A stretch of 64,000 bases of DNA from Candidatus Alkanophaga liquidiphilum. GTDB lineage: Archaea; Halobacteriota; Syntropharchaeia; Alkanophagales; B39-G2. Positions within the stretch are counted from its first letter, which is position 1, and the number at the start of each line of letters is the position of its first letter. The notes beneath the pieces are model-generated. The model saw nothing but the letters and a program-made list of their open reading frames with translations. It did not search any database and was not told the origin of the DNA. Below, one piece after another: positions 49,458 through 61,663 of the stretch. A program made the translations under genes and the position numbers. Location: positions 21,399 to 85,398 of the forward strand of contig JAPHEF010000001.1 in NCBI GenBank assembly GCA_029259535.1. The letters run 5' to 3'.

Positions 49458-50270
49458 TTAATCAAGCCCCACGAATATTTTTACAAGCTTCGCGAGCTTA
49501 AAGGCAACGGCGTGCATCTCCTCGTCGTAAAATTTCGCGGGCACGCTTACATTTCTCGGCGTTTCGGGCTCGTATTTCTTCGAGCCTACGACAAAACTCC
49601 ACAAGCCAAGATACGAAGGGACGGGAGCAACATAAATTCTCACTATGGGGAAAAACTTAGAAGTTCCAGAGAGAGCCTTGCGGAGCACGTCGGGCTGGTG
49701 CACGGGCGAGCCGCTCTGCGTCACGAACACGCCGTCGTCATTGAGCCTTTCGAACGCCGTTCTGTAAAAGTCTTCGGAGAAGAGCTTCTCAGCCTCGCCA
49801 ATGGGGTCTGTCGAGTCCACGAGAATCACGTCGAAACGCTCCTCGCAGCCCTTAAGGAAATCAAAAGCGTCCATGAAAACAATCTCCACGCTCGCGTCAT
49901 CCAAGGCGCCGCCGTCTATCCCGAAATTCTCCTTGCAAACGCTCACGACTTCCTCGTCGATCTCCACGAGCTTTACGGAAACACCGTGCTTCAGCGCCTC
50001 TCTGATGCAGCCGCCGTCGCCCCCACCGATTATCAAAACGCTCTTCGGGCTTCTGTGCGCTGCGAGCGGGACGTGCGTCAGCATTTCGTGGTAAAGGAAC
50101 TCATCAAGCTCGCTCGCCTGAATCTTGCCGTCGAGGGCCAGCACCTTCCCGAAAGCCTCGTTCTCGAAAACCTCGATTTTTTGATACTTCGACTCACTCG
50201 TGCACAACACCTTTGCAACCTTGAACGTTATCCCTACGCTCTCGCTCATGAACTCAGTGAACGTCAGCAT
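49458..50270 (-). CDS. speE: Polyamine aminopropyltransferase (spermidine synthase)
   Basis: VLIIGGGDGGCIRE and VKLVEIDEEVV are present, with conserved D positions and a ~270 aa length. Confidence 0.85.
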   Translation of the reverse strand: MLTFTEFMSESVGITFKVAKVLCTSESKYQKIEVFENEAFGKVLALDGKIQASELDEFLYHEMLTHVPLAAHRSPKSVLIIGGGDGGCIREALKHGVSVKLVEIDEEVVSVCKENFGIDGGALDDASVEIVFMDAFDFLKGCEERFDVILVDSTDPIGEAEKLFSEDFYRTAFERLNDDGVFVTQSGSPVHQPDVLRKALSGTSKFFPIVRIYVAPVPSYLGLWSFVVGSKKYEPETPRNVSVPAKFYDEEMHAVAFKLAKLVKIFVGLD

Positions 50271-50333
50271 CAGCCACTATTTTGTCCAAACTTGTTAAAT
50301 TCGTGTTCCACATCGCCACTGCTACTCTACGAA

Positions 50334-50868
50334 TTAAAACCTCTTTAAGAAGTCCTCGATGACTTGCAAGTAGCTTTTGTCCAACCCATACAATTCGTGA
50401 ACGAGGGCGTCGGTTTCGCCTCAAGTCCTCGCAATCACATCGCTTTTAGGACGAGAAAAGTCTCAAACTTTTTCCTCTCTTCGCACGTCGCTCCCACAAC
50501 GCCGCTGCCACGTCCTCGGCTTTCATTCGTAGTTCGCCCCGCTCCATATCAAGGGTTCACACCCGTTAGGGGGCACTTCGAACTTCGTTCGCAGCGGCAC
50601 ACGTCATCATGGTTTGCCTCTTGAACTCTACGACAAAGACGCCGTTCCCATATTCGTCGAAGGCGAGCAGGTCGCTCCGCTTATACCCTGCACGTCTTTT
50701 TCAAATCTCACGTTCCCCAACTCGCCCTCGTAGCCGAGCGCCTCAAGAACGCCACTCCTGATGAATGCTCTTTAAATCCCAGAGTTTCAGGAGGTATCTG
50801 AAAATACGCGATCGATGCCTTCTTTACGATGCTTTCGGCAGGAGGACTCTCATCAACGCTCTTCACTC
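50334..50868 (-). pseudogene. Multiply frameshifted remnant of a PD-(D/E)xK nuclease-like gene (restriction-enzyme / NucS-HsdR_N-like core, ELYGL-type C-terminus)
   Basis: No intact ORF exists in ~550 nt. Minus-strand fragments in three frames include ...IRSGVLEALGYEGELGNVRFEKDVQG and YKRSDLLAFDEYGNGVFVVEFKRQ, which carries the D...EFK PD-(D/E)xK motif. A further fragment is a C-terminal ...TDALVHELYGLDKSYLQVIEDFLKRF-stop. Confidence 0.4.
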
Positions 50869-50926
50869 CTTTTTTAAAGCTGCTTTGTGGTCGTCGTAAT
50901 TAATAGAAAAGAGACAATATACACAG

Positions 50927-51250
50927 ATGCACGACGCAATCCTCCAAATACGGACGGAAACCCGCAGGAAGCTTGCGGAAAACGAACGGAGGTCGCTAAG
51001 GAACATAATAGAGCGATATAAGGGGCGAAGCGAGTGCATTCCGCTTTACGAAGATGAGCGTAGCCTTGATTTTTACGTGACGAGCGTGAACGATGCACGG
51101 CACATCGCCTCGAAAATTCTGAGGGTGCTTGGTGGAAGGAAGAAAGAAAGCACGAGTTTCCTTAGGGTTGAGCGTGGAAAACCTGTTTACAGGTTCACGA
51201 TTTGCATTACACTGCTTGAAAATCCTTCGAGGGCGAAATATGGATTTTAG
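50927..51250 (+). CDS. Hypothetical protein
   Basis: The 107 aa ORF has no recognisable domain. It lies beside the pseudogene remnant. Confidence 0.25.
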   Translation: MHDAILQIRTETRRKLAENERRSLRNIIERYKGRSECIPLYEDERSLDFYVTSVNDARHIASKILRVLGGRKKESTSFLRVERGKPVYRFTICITLLENPSRAKYGF

Positions 51251-58214: not shown

Positions 58215-58286
58215 TGGACCGGTCGGGATTTGAACCCGAGGCCTCTCGCACGCCAAGCGAGCGATCTTCCGCTGATCTACCGGCCC
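58215..58286 (-). tRNA. tRNA-Ala (anticodon GGC)
   Basis: The minus-strand sequence is GGGCCGGTAGATCAGCGGAAGATCGCTCGCTTGGCGTGCGAGAGGCCTCGGGTTCAAATCCCGACCGGTCCA. It folds as a cloverleaf with 7-bp acceptor, D and T arms (GGTTCAAATCC). The anticodon loop is TTGGCGT and the G3:U70 Ala identity pair is present. CCA is not encoded. Confidence 0.85.
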
Positions 58287-58451: not shown

Positions 58452-59504
58452 ATGCCAGAGGAGATGAGTCATAGGGAGAGGTTGTTTGCGGCGTTCGAGC
58501 GGAGTTCTTATGACCGGGCGCCGTGTCCGGGGATTACGCAGACCGGGACGGTCGAGCTGATGGAGGCGAGCGGCGCTTTCTTCCCGGAGGTGCATTGGGA
58601 CGCTGAGAAGATGGCGAAGCTGGCGTGGGCGGCTTTCGAACATGCCGGACTCGAAGGCATCCGTGTCCCGTTCATCATTTACACCGAAGCGCTCGCCGTC
58701 GGCACTGAGCTTTTCAAATGGGAGAAGGACAACATGCCGATGGTGAAAAAATACCCATTCAGTAGCGTCGAGGAGGCTGCCGAGAAGTTAGAAGTCCCGA
58801 ATCCGAGAGAAGCTGAGAGCATGCGGGTTGTGCTGGACGCCATCGAGCTCTTAAAGCCAAAATGCGATGCTGAGAAGCTACCGCTGACCGGGCACGCCGT
58901 TGGCGCATTCCTCTTAGCCTTTGGCGTCGTGGATTTCATGAACGCCATGATAGCATTCAAGAAGAGCCCTGAAAGCTTTAGGGAAATCTGGGAGAAGACA
59001 AAAGAGCTTGTAATAACGTGGTCGGAGGCAATGATTGACGCCGGCGCCGACGTCATTTTTTACAACTGCGCAGCGCTCGGCAACTTCAGACCCGACGACT
59101 ACGAAAAACACGGGTTTTCTATTGACCGGGAGTGCATACGGAAAATAAAGGAAAAGGGGGCTTATGTGCTGGTCCACGTCTGTTCGGACATAAGGCCGGT
59201 GCTGGACCACGTGGTGAAGTTAGGGGCGGATGCTATTTCCGTGTCGGAAGTGGTGAAGATGGAGGATATTAGGAAGCGGGTCGGCGACGACGTCACGCTG
59301 ATGGGGAACGTGAACCAAGTATTCACGCTGATAAAGAGGGGGCCTGAGGAGGTCATGGCGGAGGCGAAGGCGTGTATAGAGGCGGGGACGGACATTCTGG
59401 CGCCGGGGTGCGGTTTCGGGACGAAGACGCCGCTCGCAAACATGCGTGCGATGGTGGATGCGGCTAAGAAATATGGGCACCTCGCCAGACTCGCTGGGAA
59501 ATAA
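58452..59504 (+). CDS. MtaA/MtbA-like methylcobamide methyltransferase (MT2; uroporphyrinogen-decarboxylase fold, Zn-dependent), paralog 1
   Basis: The 350 aa protein has URO-D-like N-terminal RERLFAA...RAPCPGITQTGTVELMEA. Zn-ligand contexts are VHVCSD (H-x-C) and APGCGFG. Confidence 0.75.
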   Translation: MPEEMSHRERLFAAFERSSYDRAPCPGITQTGTVELMEASGAFFPEVHWDAEKMAKLAWAAFEHAGLEGIRVPFIIYTEALAVGTELFKWEKDNMPMVKKYPFSSVEEAAEKLEVPNPREAESMRVVLDAIELLKPKCDAEKLPLTGHAVGAFLLAFGVVDFMNAMIAFKKSPESFREIWEKTKELVITWSEAMIDAGADVIFYNCAALGNFRPDDYEKHGFSIDRECIRKIKEKGAYVLVHVCSDIRPVLDHVVKLGADAISVSEVVKMEDIRKRVGDDVTLMGNVNQVFTLIKRGPEEVMAEAKACIEAGTDILAPGCGFGTKTPLANMRAMVDAAKKYGHLARLAGK

Positions 59505-59546: not shown

Positions 59547-60605
59547 ATGCCAGAGGAGATGAGTCATAGGGAGAGGTTGTTTGCGGCGTTCGAGCGGAGT
59601 TCTTATGACCGGGCGCCGTGTCCGGGGATTACGCAGACCGGGACGGTCGAGCTGATGGAGGCGAGCGGCGCTTTCTTCCCGGAGGTGCATTGGGACGCTG
59701 AGAAGATGGCGAGGCTGGCGTGGGCGGCTTTCGAACATGCCGGACTCGAAGGCGTCCGTGTCCCGTTCATCATTTACACCGAAGCGCTCGCCGTCGGTGT
59801 CGAGCTTGAGAAGTGGGCGAAGGACAACATGCCGATGGTCAAGAAGTTCGCGTTCGACAGTGTTGAGGAAATAGCCGAGAGGATGGAGATACCAGACCCG
59901 CAGACGGCGCCAAGCATGAAAGTCGTGCTGGATGCCATTAAGATTTTAAAGCCGAAGTGCGACGATGCGAAGCTTCCGATAACCTGCCACGTCGGCAGTG
60001 CGTTCGTTGGCGCCTTCCTCGGCATCGTGGACATGATGAAAGCCATGATAACATTCAAGAAGAACCCTGAGGTCTTCGGCGGCGTCTTCGAGAAGACGAA
60101 GCAATTGGCACTGACGTGGGCGGAAGCCGCTATCGAGGCGGGGAGCGATGTTATTTTCTACAACTGTGCTCCGCTTGGCAACTTTAGACCCACCGACTAT
60201 GAGAAATATGGGCTTCCTGTGGACAAGGAGTGCGTAAAGAAAATAAAGGACATGGGCGCCTACGTCGTCGTGCACGTCTGTTCGGACATAAGGCCGGTGC
60301 TGGACCACGTGGTGAAGTTAGGGGCGGATGCCATTTCCGTGTCGGAAGTGGTGAAGATGGAAGATATTAGGAAGCGGGTCGGCGACGACGTCACGCTGAT
60401 GGGGAACGTGAACCAAGTATTCACGCTGATAAAGAGGGGGCCTGAGGAGGTCATGGCGGAGGCGAAGGCGTGTATAGAGGCGGGGACGGACATTCTGGCG
60501 CCGGGGTGCGGTTTCGGGACGAAGACGCCGCTCGCAAACATGCGTGCGATGGTCGAGGCGGCTAAGAAATATGGGCACCTCGCCAGACTCGCTTCGGGGG
60601 CGTAA
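59547..60605 (+). CDS. MtaA/MtbA-like methylcobamide methyltransferase (MT2), paralog 2
   Basis: The first ~330 nt and last ~340 nt are near-identical at the DNA level to paralog 1. The central ~380 nt are divergent. Confidence 0.75.
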   Translation: MPEEMSHRERLFAAFERSSYDRAPCPGITQTGTVELMEASGAFFPEVHWDAEKMARLAWAAFEHAGLEGVRVPFIIYTEALAVGVELEKWAKDNMPMVKKFAFDSVEEIAERMEIPDPQTAPSMKVVLDAIKILKPKCDDAKLPITCHVGSAFVGAFLGIVDMMKAMITFKKNPEVFGGVFEKTKQLALTWAEAAIEAGSDVIFYNCAPLGNFRPTDYEKYGLPVDKECVKKIKDMGAYVVVHVCSDIRPVLDHVVKLGADAISVSEVVKMEDIRKRVGDDVTLMGNVNQVFTLIKRGPEEVMAEAKACIEAGTDILAPGCGFGTKTPLANMRAMVEAAKKYGHLARLASGA

Positions 60606-60607
60606 AA

Positions 60608-61663
60608 ATGGGAGATGAGATGAATTATAGGGAGCGGCTATTTGCCGCTTTAGACCAGAATCCGGTGGACCGGGCGCCGTGTCCGGGGATTACGCAGACC
60701 GGGACGGTCGAGCTGATGGAGGCGAGCGGCGCCTTCTTCCCGGAGGCGCATAAGGACGCTGAGAAGATGGCGAAGTTGGCGTGGGCGGCTTTCGAACATG
60801 CCGGACTCGAAGGCATCAGAATTCCTTTTATTGTTTATACCGAGGCGAGTGCGCTTGGCACAAGGCTTTACAAGTGGAAGAAAGACACGCAGCCCATGGT
60901 TGAAGAAGTTCCAATAAAGAGCCCAGAGGACATAGACAAGCTGGAAATTCCAGACCCGAGAGATGCGGAGTTGCCGTCTGTGGTGTTAAAGGCGATTGAG
61001 ATTTTGAAGCCGAAGTGCAACGCCGCAAAGCTGCCGCTGACTGTCATGGTGATAGCGCCGGCGACGATGTCGCTCGGTGGTGCTTTGGTTGACATAATGA
61101 AGGTGATGATGTGGGTGAAGACGAACATAGATGACACGGTGAAGCTTGCCAAAAAAGTAAGCGAGATGAGTCTCGCATTCGCTGAGGCAGTCGTGGACGC
61201 CGGCGCCGACGTCATCTTCTACAACGTTGGCATTTCCAGCAGGGTGAAAGAGTATCCTGAGGTCTTCTTCCCCATAGACAAAGAGGTCGCAGGCAAAATA
61301 CGGAAGATGGGCGTTTACATGGTTGCGCACCACTGCTCAGATCCAAGGCGGATAATAAACGAGCTTGCGAGTCTCGGCGCTCACGGATTGTCCATCCCGG
61401 AGCCGCAGATGATTCCCGTGCGGGAGGCACGTGAGCTCGTCGGCGACCGTGTGGCGCTCGTCGGCGGACTGGACCAGTTGCACACCCTGATAAAGAAGAG
61501 CCCAGAGGATGTGATGGAACAAGCAAAGACGGCGATAGAAGAGGGTATAGACGTGCTGGCGCCGGGGTGCGGTTTCGGGACGAAGACGCCGCTCGCAAAC
61601 ATGCGTGCGATGGTGGAGGCGGCTAAGAAATATGGGCACCTCGCCAGACTCGCTAAGAAGTAG
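60608..61663 (+). CDS. MtaA/MtbA-like methylcobamide methyltransferase (MT2), paralog 3 (more divergent)
   Basis: It shares identical ~80-nt (60661-60740) and ~100-nt (61558-61655) terminal blocks with paralogs 1 and 2. HHCSD and APGCGFG zinc contexts are retained. It starts 2 nt after the paralog 2 stop. Confidence 0.75.
   Translation: MGDEMNYRERLFAALDQNPVDRAPCPGITQTGTVELMEASGAFFPEAHKDAEKMAKLAWAAFEHAGLEGIRIPFIVYTEASALGTRLYKWKKDTQPMVEEVPIKSPEDIDKLEIPDPRDAELPSVVLKAIEILKPKCNAAKLPLTVMVIAPATMSLGGALVDIMKVMMWVKTNIDDTVKLAKKVSEMSLAFAEAVVDAGADVIFYNVGISSRVKEYPEVFFPIDKEVAGKIRKMGVYMVAHHCSDPRRIINELASLGAHGLSIPEPQMIPVREARELVGDRVALVGGLDQLHTLIKKSPEDVMEQAKTAIEEGIDVLAPGCGFGTKTPLANMRAMVEAAKKYGHLARLAKK

Follow-up and report, generated by a model that had tools for sequence, protein, structure and literature searches.

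The gene-free gap upstream of speE in Candidatus Alkanophaga liquidiphilum holds the remnant of a type IIG restriction-modification gene

RM.BpuSI, a type IIG restriction-modification (R-M) enzyme with a crystal structure, begins with an N-terminal PD-x15-ExK nuclease, followed by a helical connector, then an N6-adenine methyltransferase and lastly a recognition domain (PMC3185434). Enzymes of the MmeI family (type IIL/IIG) are likewise single chains, in which the nuclease is N-terminal, the methyltransferase central and the recognition part C-terminal (PMC2582602, PMC2731913). Here we report on a 64-kb stretch of contig JAPHEF010000001.1 of Candidatus Alkanophaga liquidiphilum (the window), in which the 656 bp between speE and an NMD3-like open reading frame (ORF) are gene-free and remain uncalled in all eight independent assemblies. 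We hold with high confidence that positions 50334 to ~50866, on the minus strand, are a non-functional pseudogene (the relic) of a single-polypeptide type IIG R-M enzyme of ~1230 amino acids (aa). Homology to both ends of the type IIG gene, the collinearity of the pieces, the map of lesions and fixation in the sampled population were directly observed.

The minus strand of the gap contains three fragments, one per reading frame, which a preliminary description of this stretch had picked out and which we located letter for letter: ...AFIRSGVLEALGYEGELGNVRFEKDVQG at 50768-50685, YKRSDLLAFDEYGNGVFVVEFKRQ at 50685-50614, and GETDALVHELYGLDKSYLQVIEDFLKRF followed by TAA at 50420-50334. That description took them for a restriction-enzyme-like PD-(D/E)xK nuclease gene, inactivated and partly deleted, and both the similarity to HSDR_N_2 proteins and a mapped deletion of ~3.06 kb bear it out. 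Six proteins match the stitched N-terminal fragment at 66-76% identity (E=2e-12 to 2e-8). P0003, which is among them, scores above the gathering threshold of Pfam HSDR_N_2 (25 bits), and the relic's closest relatives reach 32.3, 28.2 and 44.6 bits. An exhaustive HMMER search with P0003 returned 100 relatives, 36 of them full length (1150-1400 aa). Of the intact relatives found, the closest is P0008 (1229 aa, from metagenomic locus L013), which carries HSDR_N_2 at aa 25-118, N6_Mtase/Eco57I at aa 394-765 and TaqI_C at aa 890-1053. The methyltransferase of the intact relatives is recognised by the Eco57I (E=6.5e-30) and N6_Mtase (1e-16) models, and full-length relatives score as REase_MTase_IIG in PADLOC (6e-55). 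What the preliminary description called a "defence or repair nuclease" is more precisely a type IIG R-M enzyme. Pfam matched no R-M or nuclease family to the bare fragments, single or stitched, because they are too short. A word-indexed protein search with the C-terminal fragment gave no candidates; the C-terminal tail is recognised only via the full-length relatives, themselves found through the N-terminus.

When the whole window was searched by tblastn with P0008, aa 31-58 and 59-80 aligned to 50768-50685 (71% identity) and 50682-50617 (86%), with a joint E=9e-14, and aa 1144-1169 and 1188-1228 to 50535-50458 (42%) and 50462-50340 (41%), with a joint E=6e-6; outside the relic, nothing in the window scored better than E=0.2. 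The fragments are thus significantly similar to an R-M family, one of the two points on which the preliminary description had let its reading stand or fall. All 2926 six-frame pieces of the window were also screened with family profiles. The profile of the 36 full-length relatives ranks the three fragments at the top, at positions 32-58, 59-86 and 1210-1236 of 1236, the tail match having E=4.8e-3. A subfamily profile of 12 relatives yields only four matches at E<=10, all within the gap and collinear: positions 30-57 (4e-8), 57-81 (5.7e-8), 1144-1167 (~10) and 1202-1228 of 1228 (1.4e-4). With neither profile did any part of the gene from between the N- and C-terminal pieces appear anywhere in the six frames of the window. 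The relic lacks the methyltransferase domain: across the six frames of the window, nothing falls at profile positions 82-1143. The relic is therefore a derivative of the type IIG family and not a functional member. In shuffle tests of Smith-Waterman local alignments (300 shuffles, four homologues), fragments A, B and C exceeded 300 of 300 shuffles against the three closer homologues; against the fourth, P0025, B and C exceeded all shuffles and A was equalled by one (p=0.007). At the DNA level, blastn aligns the relic to the 3' ends of L102, L113 and L111 at 70-72% identity, stop included, and alignment to intact genes extends back to 50779.

The codons of the nuclease motif (P)D-x14-E-x-K are still in the relic, with D at 50673-50671, E at 50628-50626 and K at 50622-50620. 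The relic encodes ...SDLLAFDEYGNGVFVVEFKR, and at the level of sequence an N-terminal PD-(D/E)xK domain is present. The residues D62, E77 and K79 (P0008 numbering) are invariant in 36 of 36 full-length relatives, 18 of which have Pro at position 61. Family N-termini compared with Pfam match HSDR_N_2 in 19 of 21 cases and HSDR_N in 12 of 21. The D-(x)n-E-x-K core and the HsdR_N kinship named in the preliminary description thus hold, but its link to NucS was not confirmed: the match of the N-terminal family profile to NucS in the PDB, 2vld, is sub-threshold (E=0.61) and covers the D...E-x-K segment only. Such an alignment would suggest a shared superfamily at most, and not NucS membership.

The lesions were mapped by a DNA multiple alignment of the relic with nine intact genes, an approach that the preliminary description had called for. 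Their order, 5' to 3' along the relic, is as follows.

50782..50866, minus strand: degenerate 5' end, presumed codons ~1-26, assigned because it lies as far upstream of the first codon of clear homology as expected
50685..50781, minus strand: codons ~27-58, ...DLK/AFIRSGVLEALGYEGELGNVRFEKDVQG, the first half of HSDR_N_2 including the LGY motif
50679..50684, minus strand: insertion of 2 nucleotides (nt) between codons 58 and 59, a frameshift (relic AAGCGGAGC, homologues AA--GAAGC)
50608..50682, minus strand: codons 59-83, KRSDLLAFDEYGNGVFVVEFKRQT, the catalytic core (tblastn with P0008 and subfamily profile)
50597..50607 (~50601), minus strand: site of a 38-nt deletion, codons ~84-96, a frameshift (DNA alignment)
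50531..50596, minus strand: codons ~100-121, PLRTKFEVPPNGCEPLIWSGAN, similar to the homologues' KPLKARYGLLTDGLELLLYERIN, end of the nuclease domain (Smith-Waterman and continuous DNA alignment)
50525..50539, minus strand: junction of the ~3.06-kb deletion, codons ~122-1143 gone; N- and C-terminal homologies meet within ~15 nt
50453..50535, minus strand: codons 1144-1170, ELRMKAEDVAAALWERRAKRGKSLRLF (300 of 300 shuffles exceeded against P0008; clear DNA alignment)
50430..50452, minus strand: 1-nt insertion in a T-rich run (~50452), then codons 1171-1178 (DNA alignment)
50418..50429, minus strand: 59-nt deletion (~50429) and 1-nt deletion (~50418) (DNA alignment)
50334..50417, minus strand: codons ~1203-1229, the conserved tail (E)TDALVHELYGLDKSYLQVIEDFLKRF, and stop TAA at 50336-50334 (profiles, blastn and DNA alignment)

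In total there are at least six indels, and the remains are spread over three reading frames with no uninterrupted frame. The preliminary description had counted at least two frameshifts and a stop; the frameshifts are real and more numerous, but its stop, TGA at 50423-50421, is an out-of-frame by-product between two compensating indels and not a nonsense mutation. The ancestral stop is kept, the relic's TAA aligning with the stops of the homologues. The start is uncertain, with GTG at 50866 and ATG at 50853 as candidates: the 5'-most ~85 nt are scrambled, DNA similarity there is patchy, and near 50795-50770 the relic either has ~26 nt in excess or has lost 2 nt and diverged. The frame change at VQG/YKRSD is a real lesion, since homologues read VRGKRSD in one frame and relatives continue without interruption through ...VRFEQRVRGKRSDLLAFDDY... 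Further downstream, the frame-0 piece PLRTKFEVPPNGCEPLIWSGAN maps to aa 100-122 in four of four homologues (p=0.01-0.09 in three, 0.72 for P0021), and codons 1171-1178 read RPKSDVIA, similar to IPKSDAIV in the homologues. One placement was discarded: AEDVAAALWERR was first aligned with the N-terminal FAQLWERY, and tblastn together with the DNA alignment put it at codons 1144-1169.

By analogy, the ancestral enzyme most likely worked like RM.BpuSI. It would have comprised, in order, an HsdR_N-type PD-(D/E)xK nuclease, a helical connector, an Eco57I-family gamma-class N6-adenine methyltransferase, a TaqI_C-type recognition part and a short conserved tail. Like characterised type IIG enzymes, it would have used its recognition domain to recognise an asymmetric site, in which an adenine was methylated, and its N-terminal nuclease to cleave DNA lacking this methylation at a set distance. 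The ~3.06-kb deletion took the helical connector, the methyltransferase and the TaqI_C recognition domain (P0008 aa 890-1053 fall within it), and this one internal event, removing codons ~122-1143, would have ended recognition and methylation, and with them cleavage, at one stroke. Since both activities would have resided in one chain and depended on one recognition domain, loss of the R-M gene would not have been lethal to the host. The smaller indels (+2, -38, +1, -59 and -1 nt) and the scrambling of the 5' end would have gathered around the large deletion. We infer here what the ancestral enzyme did, in which order the lesions arose, and that the remnant now lacks a function, save perhaps that of carrying the speE promoter in its last ~40 bp.

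The domain order of the intact relatives is that of RM.BpuSI, with (P)D-x14-ExK in the family against PD-x15-ExK in BpuSI. This likeness is one of architecture, and sequence did not show it: no BpuSI chain is among the PDB matches of P0008 at E<=1e-3, and the best matches are the methyltransferases BseCI (7qw5) and 7lni/8cxz. With P0008 and Eco57I-family type IIG enzymes the relic shares D-x14-E-x-K, the C-terminal tail and the position of the stop, but codons ~122-1143 are gone and at least five further indels are present. The relic's tail, ...TDALVHELYGLDKSYLQVIEDFLKRF-stop, resembles the ...INELVYKLYGLNEEDVKVIEDFLRRF-stop of the relatives, occupies the same position as the tails of 16 full-length relatives and retains the family pattern ...LVY.LYGL....VIE.FL..F-stop. 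The preliminary description had seen in this C-terminal piece a helix that typically closes type IIG/MmeI-like R-M and PglX-like enzymes. It stands as a type IIG tail with a shared stop, but the ties to MmeI and PglX were not confirmed: the tail profile had no significant match in the PDB, PglX and R-M chains included, no MmeI chain there matched the tail or nuclease profile of the family, and the PglX scores fall below cut-offs.

The intact relatives are nevertheless related to PglX in their methyltransferase and recognition regions (PADLOC PglX 3e-54 over P0008 aa 658-1033), but P0008 lies far under the NCBIfam PglX cut-offs (168 vs 400 bits for BREX-2, 69.5 vs 500 for BREX-1), and the NCBIfam and PADLOC PglX models, whose best stretches cover aa 432-1033, do not reach its HsdR_N nuclease region. 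To our knowledge, PglX proteins have no nuclease domain. No BREX partner genes were found near the relic or beside the intact relatives inspected, including the neighbours of P0008 in L013. Pfam MmeI_Mtase matches the methyltransferase of the intact relatives (E=1e-10), but far less well than the Eco57I model does (E=6.5e-30). With HsdR, the R subunit of type I systems, the intact relatives share the HSDR_N-type domain only; they have no helicase/translocase (no ResIII, DEAD or Helicase_C) and carry the methyltransferase and TaqI_C instead. In base composition, the relic (51.6% G+C) is close to the host window (52.9%) and unlike its intact relatives (~40%). Its nucleotide identity to the latter is ~70%, so that no close intact orthologue is known. 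This identity and the G+C match to the host suggest, we infer, either long residence or an unsampled donor richer in G+C.

The two genes bounding the gap are oriented away from it on either side.

49458-50270, minus strand: speE (spermidine synthase), intact, on the same strand as the relic and directly downstream of it (ORF and Pfam Spermine_synth)
50927-51250, plus strand: NMD3-like gene of 107 aa, the divergent flank, called in eight of eight assemblies

Within the gap, the preliminary description's statement that the stretch lacks any ORF fails if taken literally, as a mechanical 86-aa TTG ORF lies antisense to the relic at 50364-50624; no Pfam family matches this ORF, and none of the eight assemblies has it as a called gene. 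GC skew is negative over 50300-50900, as in neighbouring minus-strand genes, which fits a former minus-strand coding region. Rfam and tRNA scans of the gap found no family and no tRNA, so an RNA gene is not the explanation. A plus-strand reading, in which the gap would hold a lost NMD3 N-terminus upstream of the NMD3-like ORF, was rejected: there are no Cys-rich frames and no remains of the zinc-binding N-terminal half of NMD3, and a stop lies in the ORF's own frame nine codons upstream. The NMD3-like ORF itself matches only the C-terminal half of Pfam NMD3 (positions 146-243 of 243, E=2.6e-12), has no NCBIfam match, and is a short NMD3-like protein in its own right or else a gene that was truncated. 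Its nucleotide sequence shows 100% identity among the eight assemblies, although its neighbours vary.

The exact speE protein occurs on 22 public contigs, of which we compared eight, from eight samples (ENA, NCBI GCA_053996935.1 and Logan). The gap is 99.1-100% identical across the eight, and the frameshifts and deletions are common to all; the lesions are thus not sequencing errors, a check that the preliminary description had left to read-level data. Variation in the gap amounts to 2-3 single-nucleotide polymorphisms (SNPs) and one 3-bp indel, about the level of the flanking genes. Copies this similar make the polymorphism uninformative about selection. The SNPs in the relic are at 50718, 50554, 50467 and 50426, and its sole length polymorphism is an AGC insertion of 3 bp at 50770, beside the scrambled 5' region, in L001, L004, L006 and L008.

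Several observations weigh against the assignment to a type IIG pseudogene or against parts of it. An AlphaFold model of the nuclease domain of P0003, built from a 16-sequence alignment, reached a predicted local distance difference test (pLDDT) score of 46.9 and did not confirm the fold, and a PDB sequence search with the N-terminal family profile gave no significant match to a solved nuclease. The first ~26 codons show no significant family similarity at the protein level in the shuffle test, and the piece at profile positions 1144-1167 is weak against the profile (E~10), if clear against P0008 and in the DNA alignment. That the remnant is functionless is most likely, the loss being read from its sequence. 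The closest species representative in the genome scan, Ca. Alkanophaga volatiphilum (described in PMC10322722), has a speE 85% identical to this one. Synteny with that species, at 79-84% nucleotide identity, runs through speE, pyrI, NOG1 and onward, and ends at 50293, 23 nt upstream of the speE start, so that the relic adjoins a gene-order breakpoint. Beyond it, Ca. Alkanophaga volatiphilum has LarB, Bax1 and XPB (L014 6078-9931), none of which occurs anywhere in the window. Neither the speE genome scan nor the metagenome scan of the family turned up an intact orthologue at this genomic position, and none of the 45 metagenome loci with relatives adjoins speE. With no syntenic intact orthologue, the ancestral state of the locus is one that we reconstruct and did not observe.

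Elsewhere, copies of the family are found in various states of decay. A rough automatic sort of the 45 metagenome loci gave 19 with an uninterrupted ORF of at least 1150 aa, 7 disrupted within the contig and 19 reaching the contig end; the first group includes one distant relative (24% identity) and one running to the contig end, and in the last group L131, L133 and L135 look truncated inside the contig. L111 and L113 are frameshifted full-length copies. Truncated copies end at codon 128 in L012 (1237-1644) and at codon 174 in L139-L141, on contigs of 40-45 kb, two of which are located as follows.

L139 8001-8663: family gene cut at codon 174
L140 4195-4857: family gene cut at codon 174

In other archaeal metagenome contigs a stub of codons 1-75 of the type IIG gene is present: L009 (4641-4910), L010 (245-514) and L011 (49-342), and in L009 and L010 a scrap of codons ~209-217 (FDLERSKFL) is also left. 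In all three loci the stub is followed, within ~55-75 nt, by a gene for a 1263-aa HKD(PLD)+SNF2 helicase (PADLOC C3a139, E=8e-157). One defence gene seems to have taken the place of another's body while the 5' stub remained. In several contigs, four nt upstream of the type IIG gene or stub, lies a conserved protein of ~200 aa (L009 4035-4637, L012 631-1233, L139 7388-7996), which has no Pfam family and a CxxC...C..H motif; it may be a conserved partner or merely a conserved neighbour.

Three other explanations of the gap have to be set against the pseudogene of a full-length type IIG enzyme. Many database relatives of the N-terminus are short (89-220 aa), some of them on long contigs, and the N-terminal pieces might derive from the gene of a small HsdR_N-type nuclease standing alone (~130-220 aa, as in P0003 or P0007), the C-terminal similarity being a coincidence. 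However, these short relatives are truncations of the long gene, in which matching stops at codon 74, 128 or 174 and unrelated tails follow, and the relic also has codons 1144-1178 and 1203-1229 of the long gene plus its stop, in the correct order and orientation; we regard this origin as very improbable. That the gene is intact in the organism and broken only by assembly or sequencing deserves hardly any credence. Metagenome-type data are prone to homopolymer errors and collapsed assemblies, and the +1 nt lesion lies in a T-rich run, but eight contigs from eight samples, processed by three pipelines (ENA, NCBI metagenome-assembled genomes and Logan), show the same structure at 99.1-100% identity, and deletions of 3 kb, 38 nt and 59 nt are not base-calling errors.

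A third explanation is compatible with pseudogene origin and holds that the relic has been co-opted, its 3' end as promoter or leader of speE, its 5' end as promoter of the NMD3-like gene, or as a regulatory RNA. The relic's stop is only 63 nt upstream of the speE start, so that the speE promoter must sit within the last tens of bp of the relic or in those 63 bp. ATTTAA, a putative TATA-like element at 50300-50295, precedes the speE ATG by ~27 nt, and similarity to the region upstream of speE in Ca. Alkanophaga volatiphilum begins at 50293, just downstream of it; TAATTAATAG, another putative element, is found ~25 nt upstream of the NMD3-like ATG, and the remnant is kept in eight of eight assemblies. 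Yet the gap contains no Rfam family, polymorphism in the relic (0.3-0.5% plus the 3-bp indel) is not below that of the flanking genes and gives no hint of special constraint, the available copies all being nearly identical, and the promoter elements are consensus look-alikes only. We consider co-option as a promoter, leader or RNA unlikely. Still more doubtful is a general form of the idea, in which stubs of this type IIG gene persist through reuse, here as promoter or leader for speE and the NMD3-like gene, and in other archaea, together with the region upstream of the stub, as a landing pad when another defence gene takes over the gene body, a pattern present in L009-L011. If true, decay of the family would mark a cassette-exchange hotspot and not random erosion.

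The pseudogene reading implies that the lineage of this uncultured alkane-oxidising archaeon once had a single-chain type IIG R-M enzyme, lost by one large deletion and then by small indels. The relic accounts for a puzzling 656-bp gap without genes and marks gene-order divergence from the sister species. It is an ordinary fixed pseudogene of a known enzyme class, a worked example of R-M gene erosion whose significance beyond annotation is small. Together with the degraded metagenome copies, it shows that in sediment archaea this type IIG family has a rapid turnover. Intact relatives such as P0008 and L094-L106 are uncharacterised and their expression could define new specificities, which is a property of the family and not of the relic.

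The relic stands among housekeeping genes and not in a defence island. Around it are genes for a hybrid-cluster protein, an HTH_10 regulator, a cupin, EarA, methyltransferases, URO-D paralogues and an adenine deaminase, and Pfam scans of ten ORFs, namely that for the HTH_10 regulator next to the gap and a further nine at 54.0-63.4 kb, gave housekeeping-type matches or none. The URO-D paralogues, of the uroporphyrinogen decarboxylase/MtaA-like methyltransferase fold, are three in tandem on the plus strand (58452-59504, 59547-60605 and 60608-61663; E=5e-64 to 2e-57), just past tRNA-Ala(GGC) at 58215-58286.

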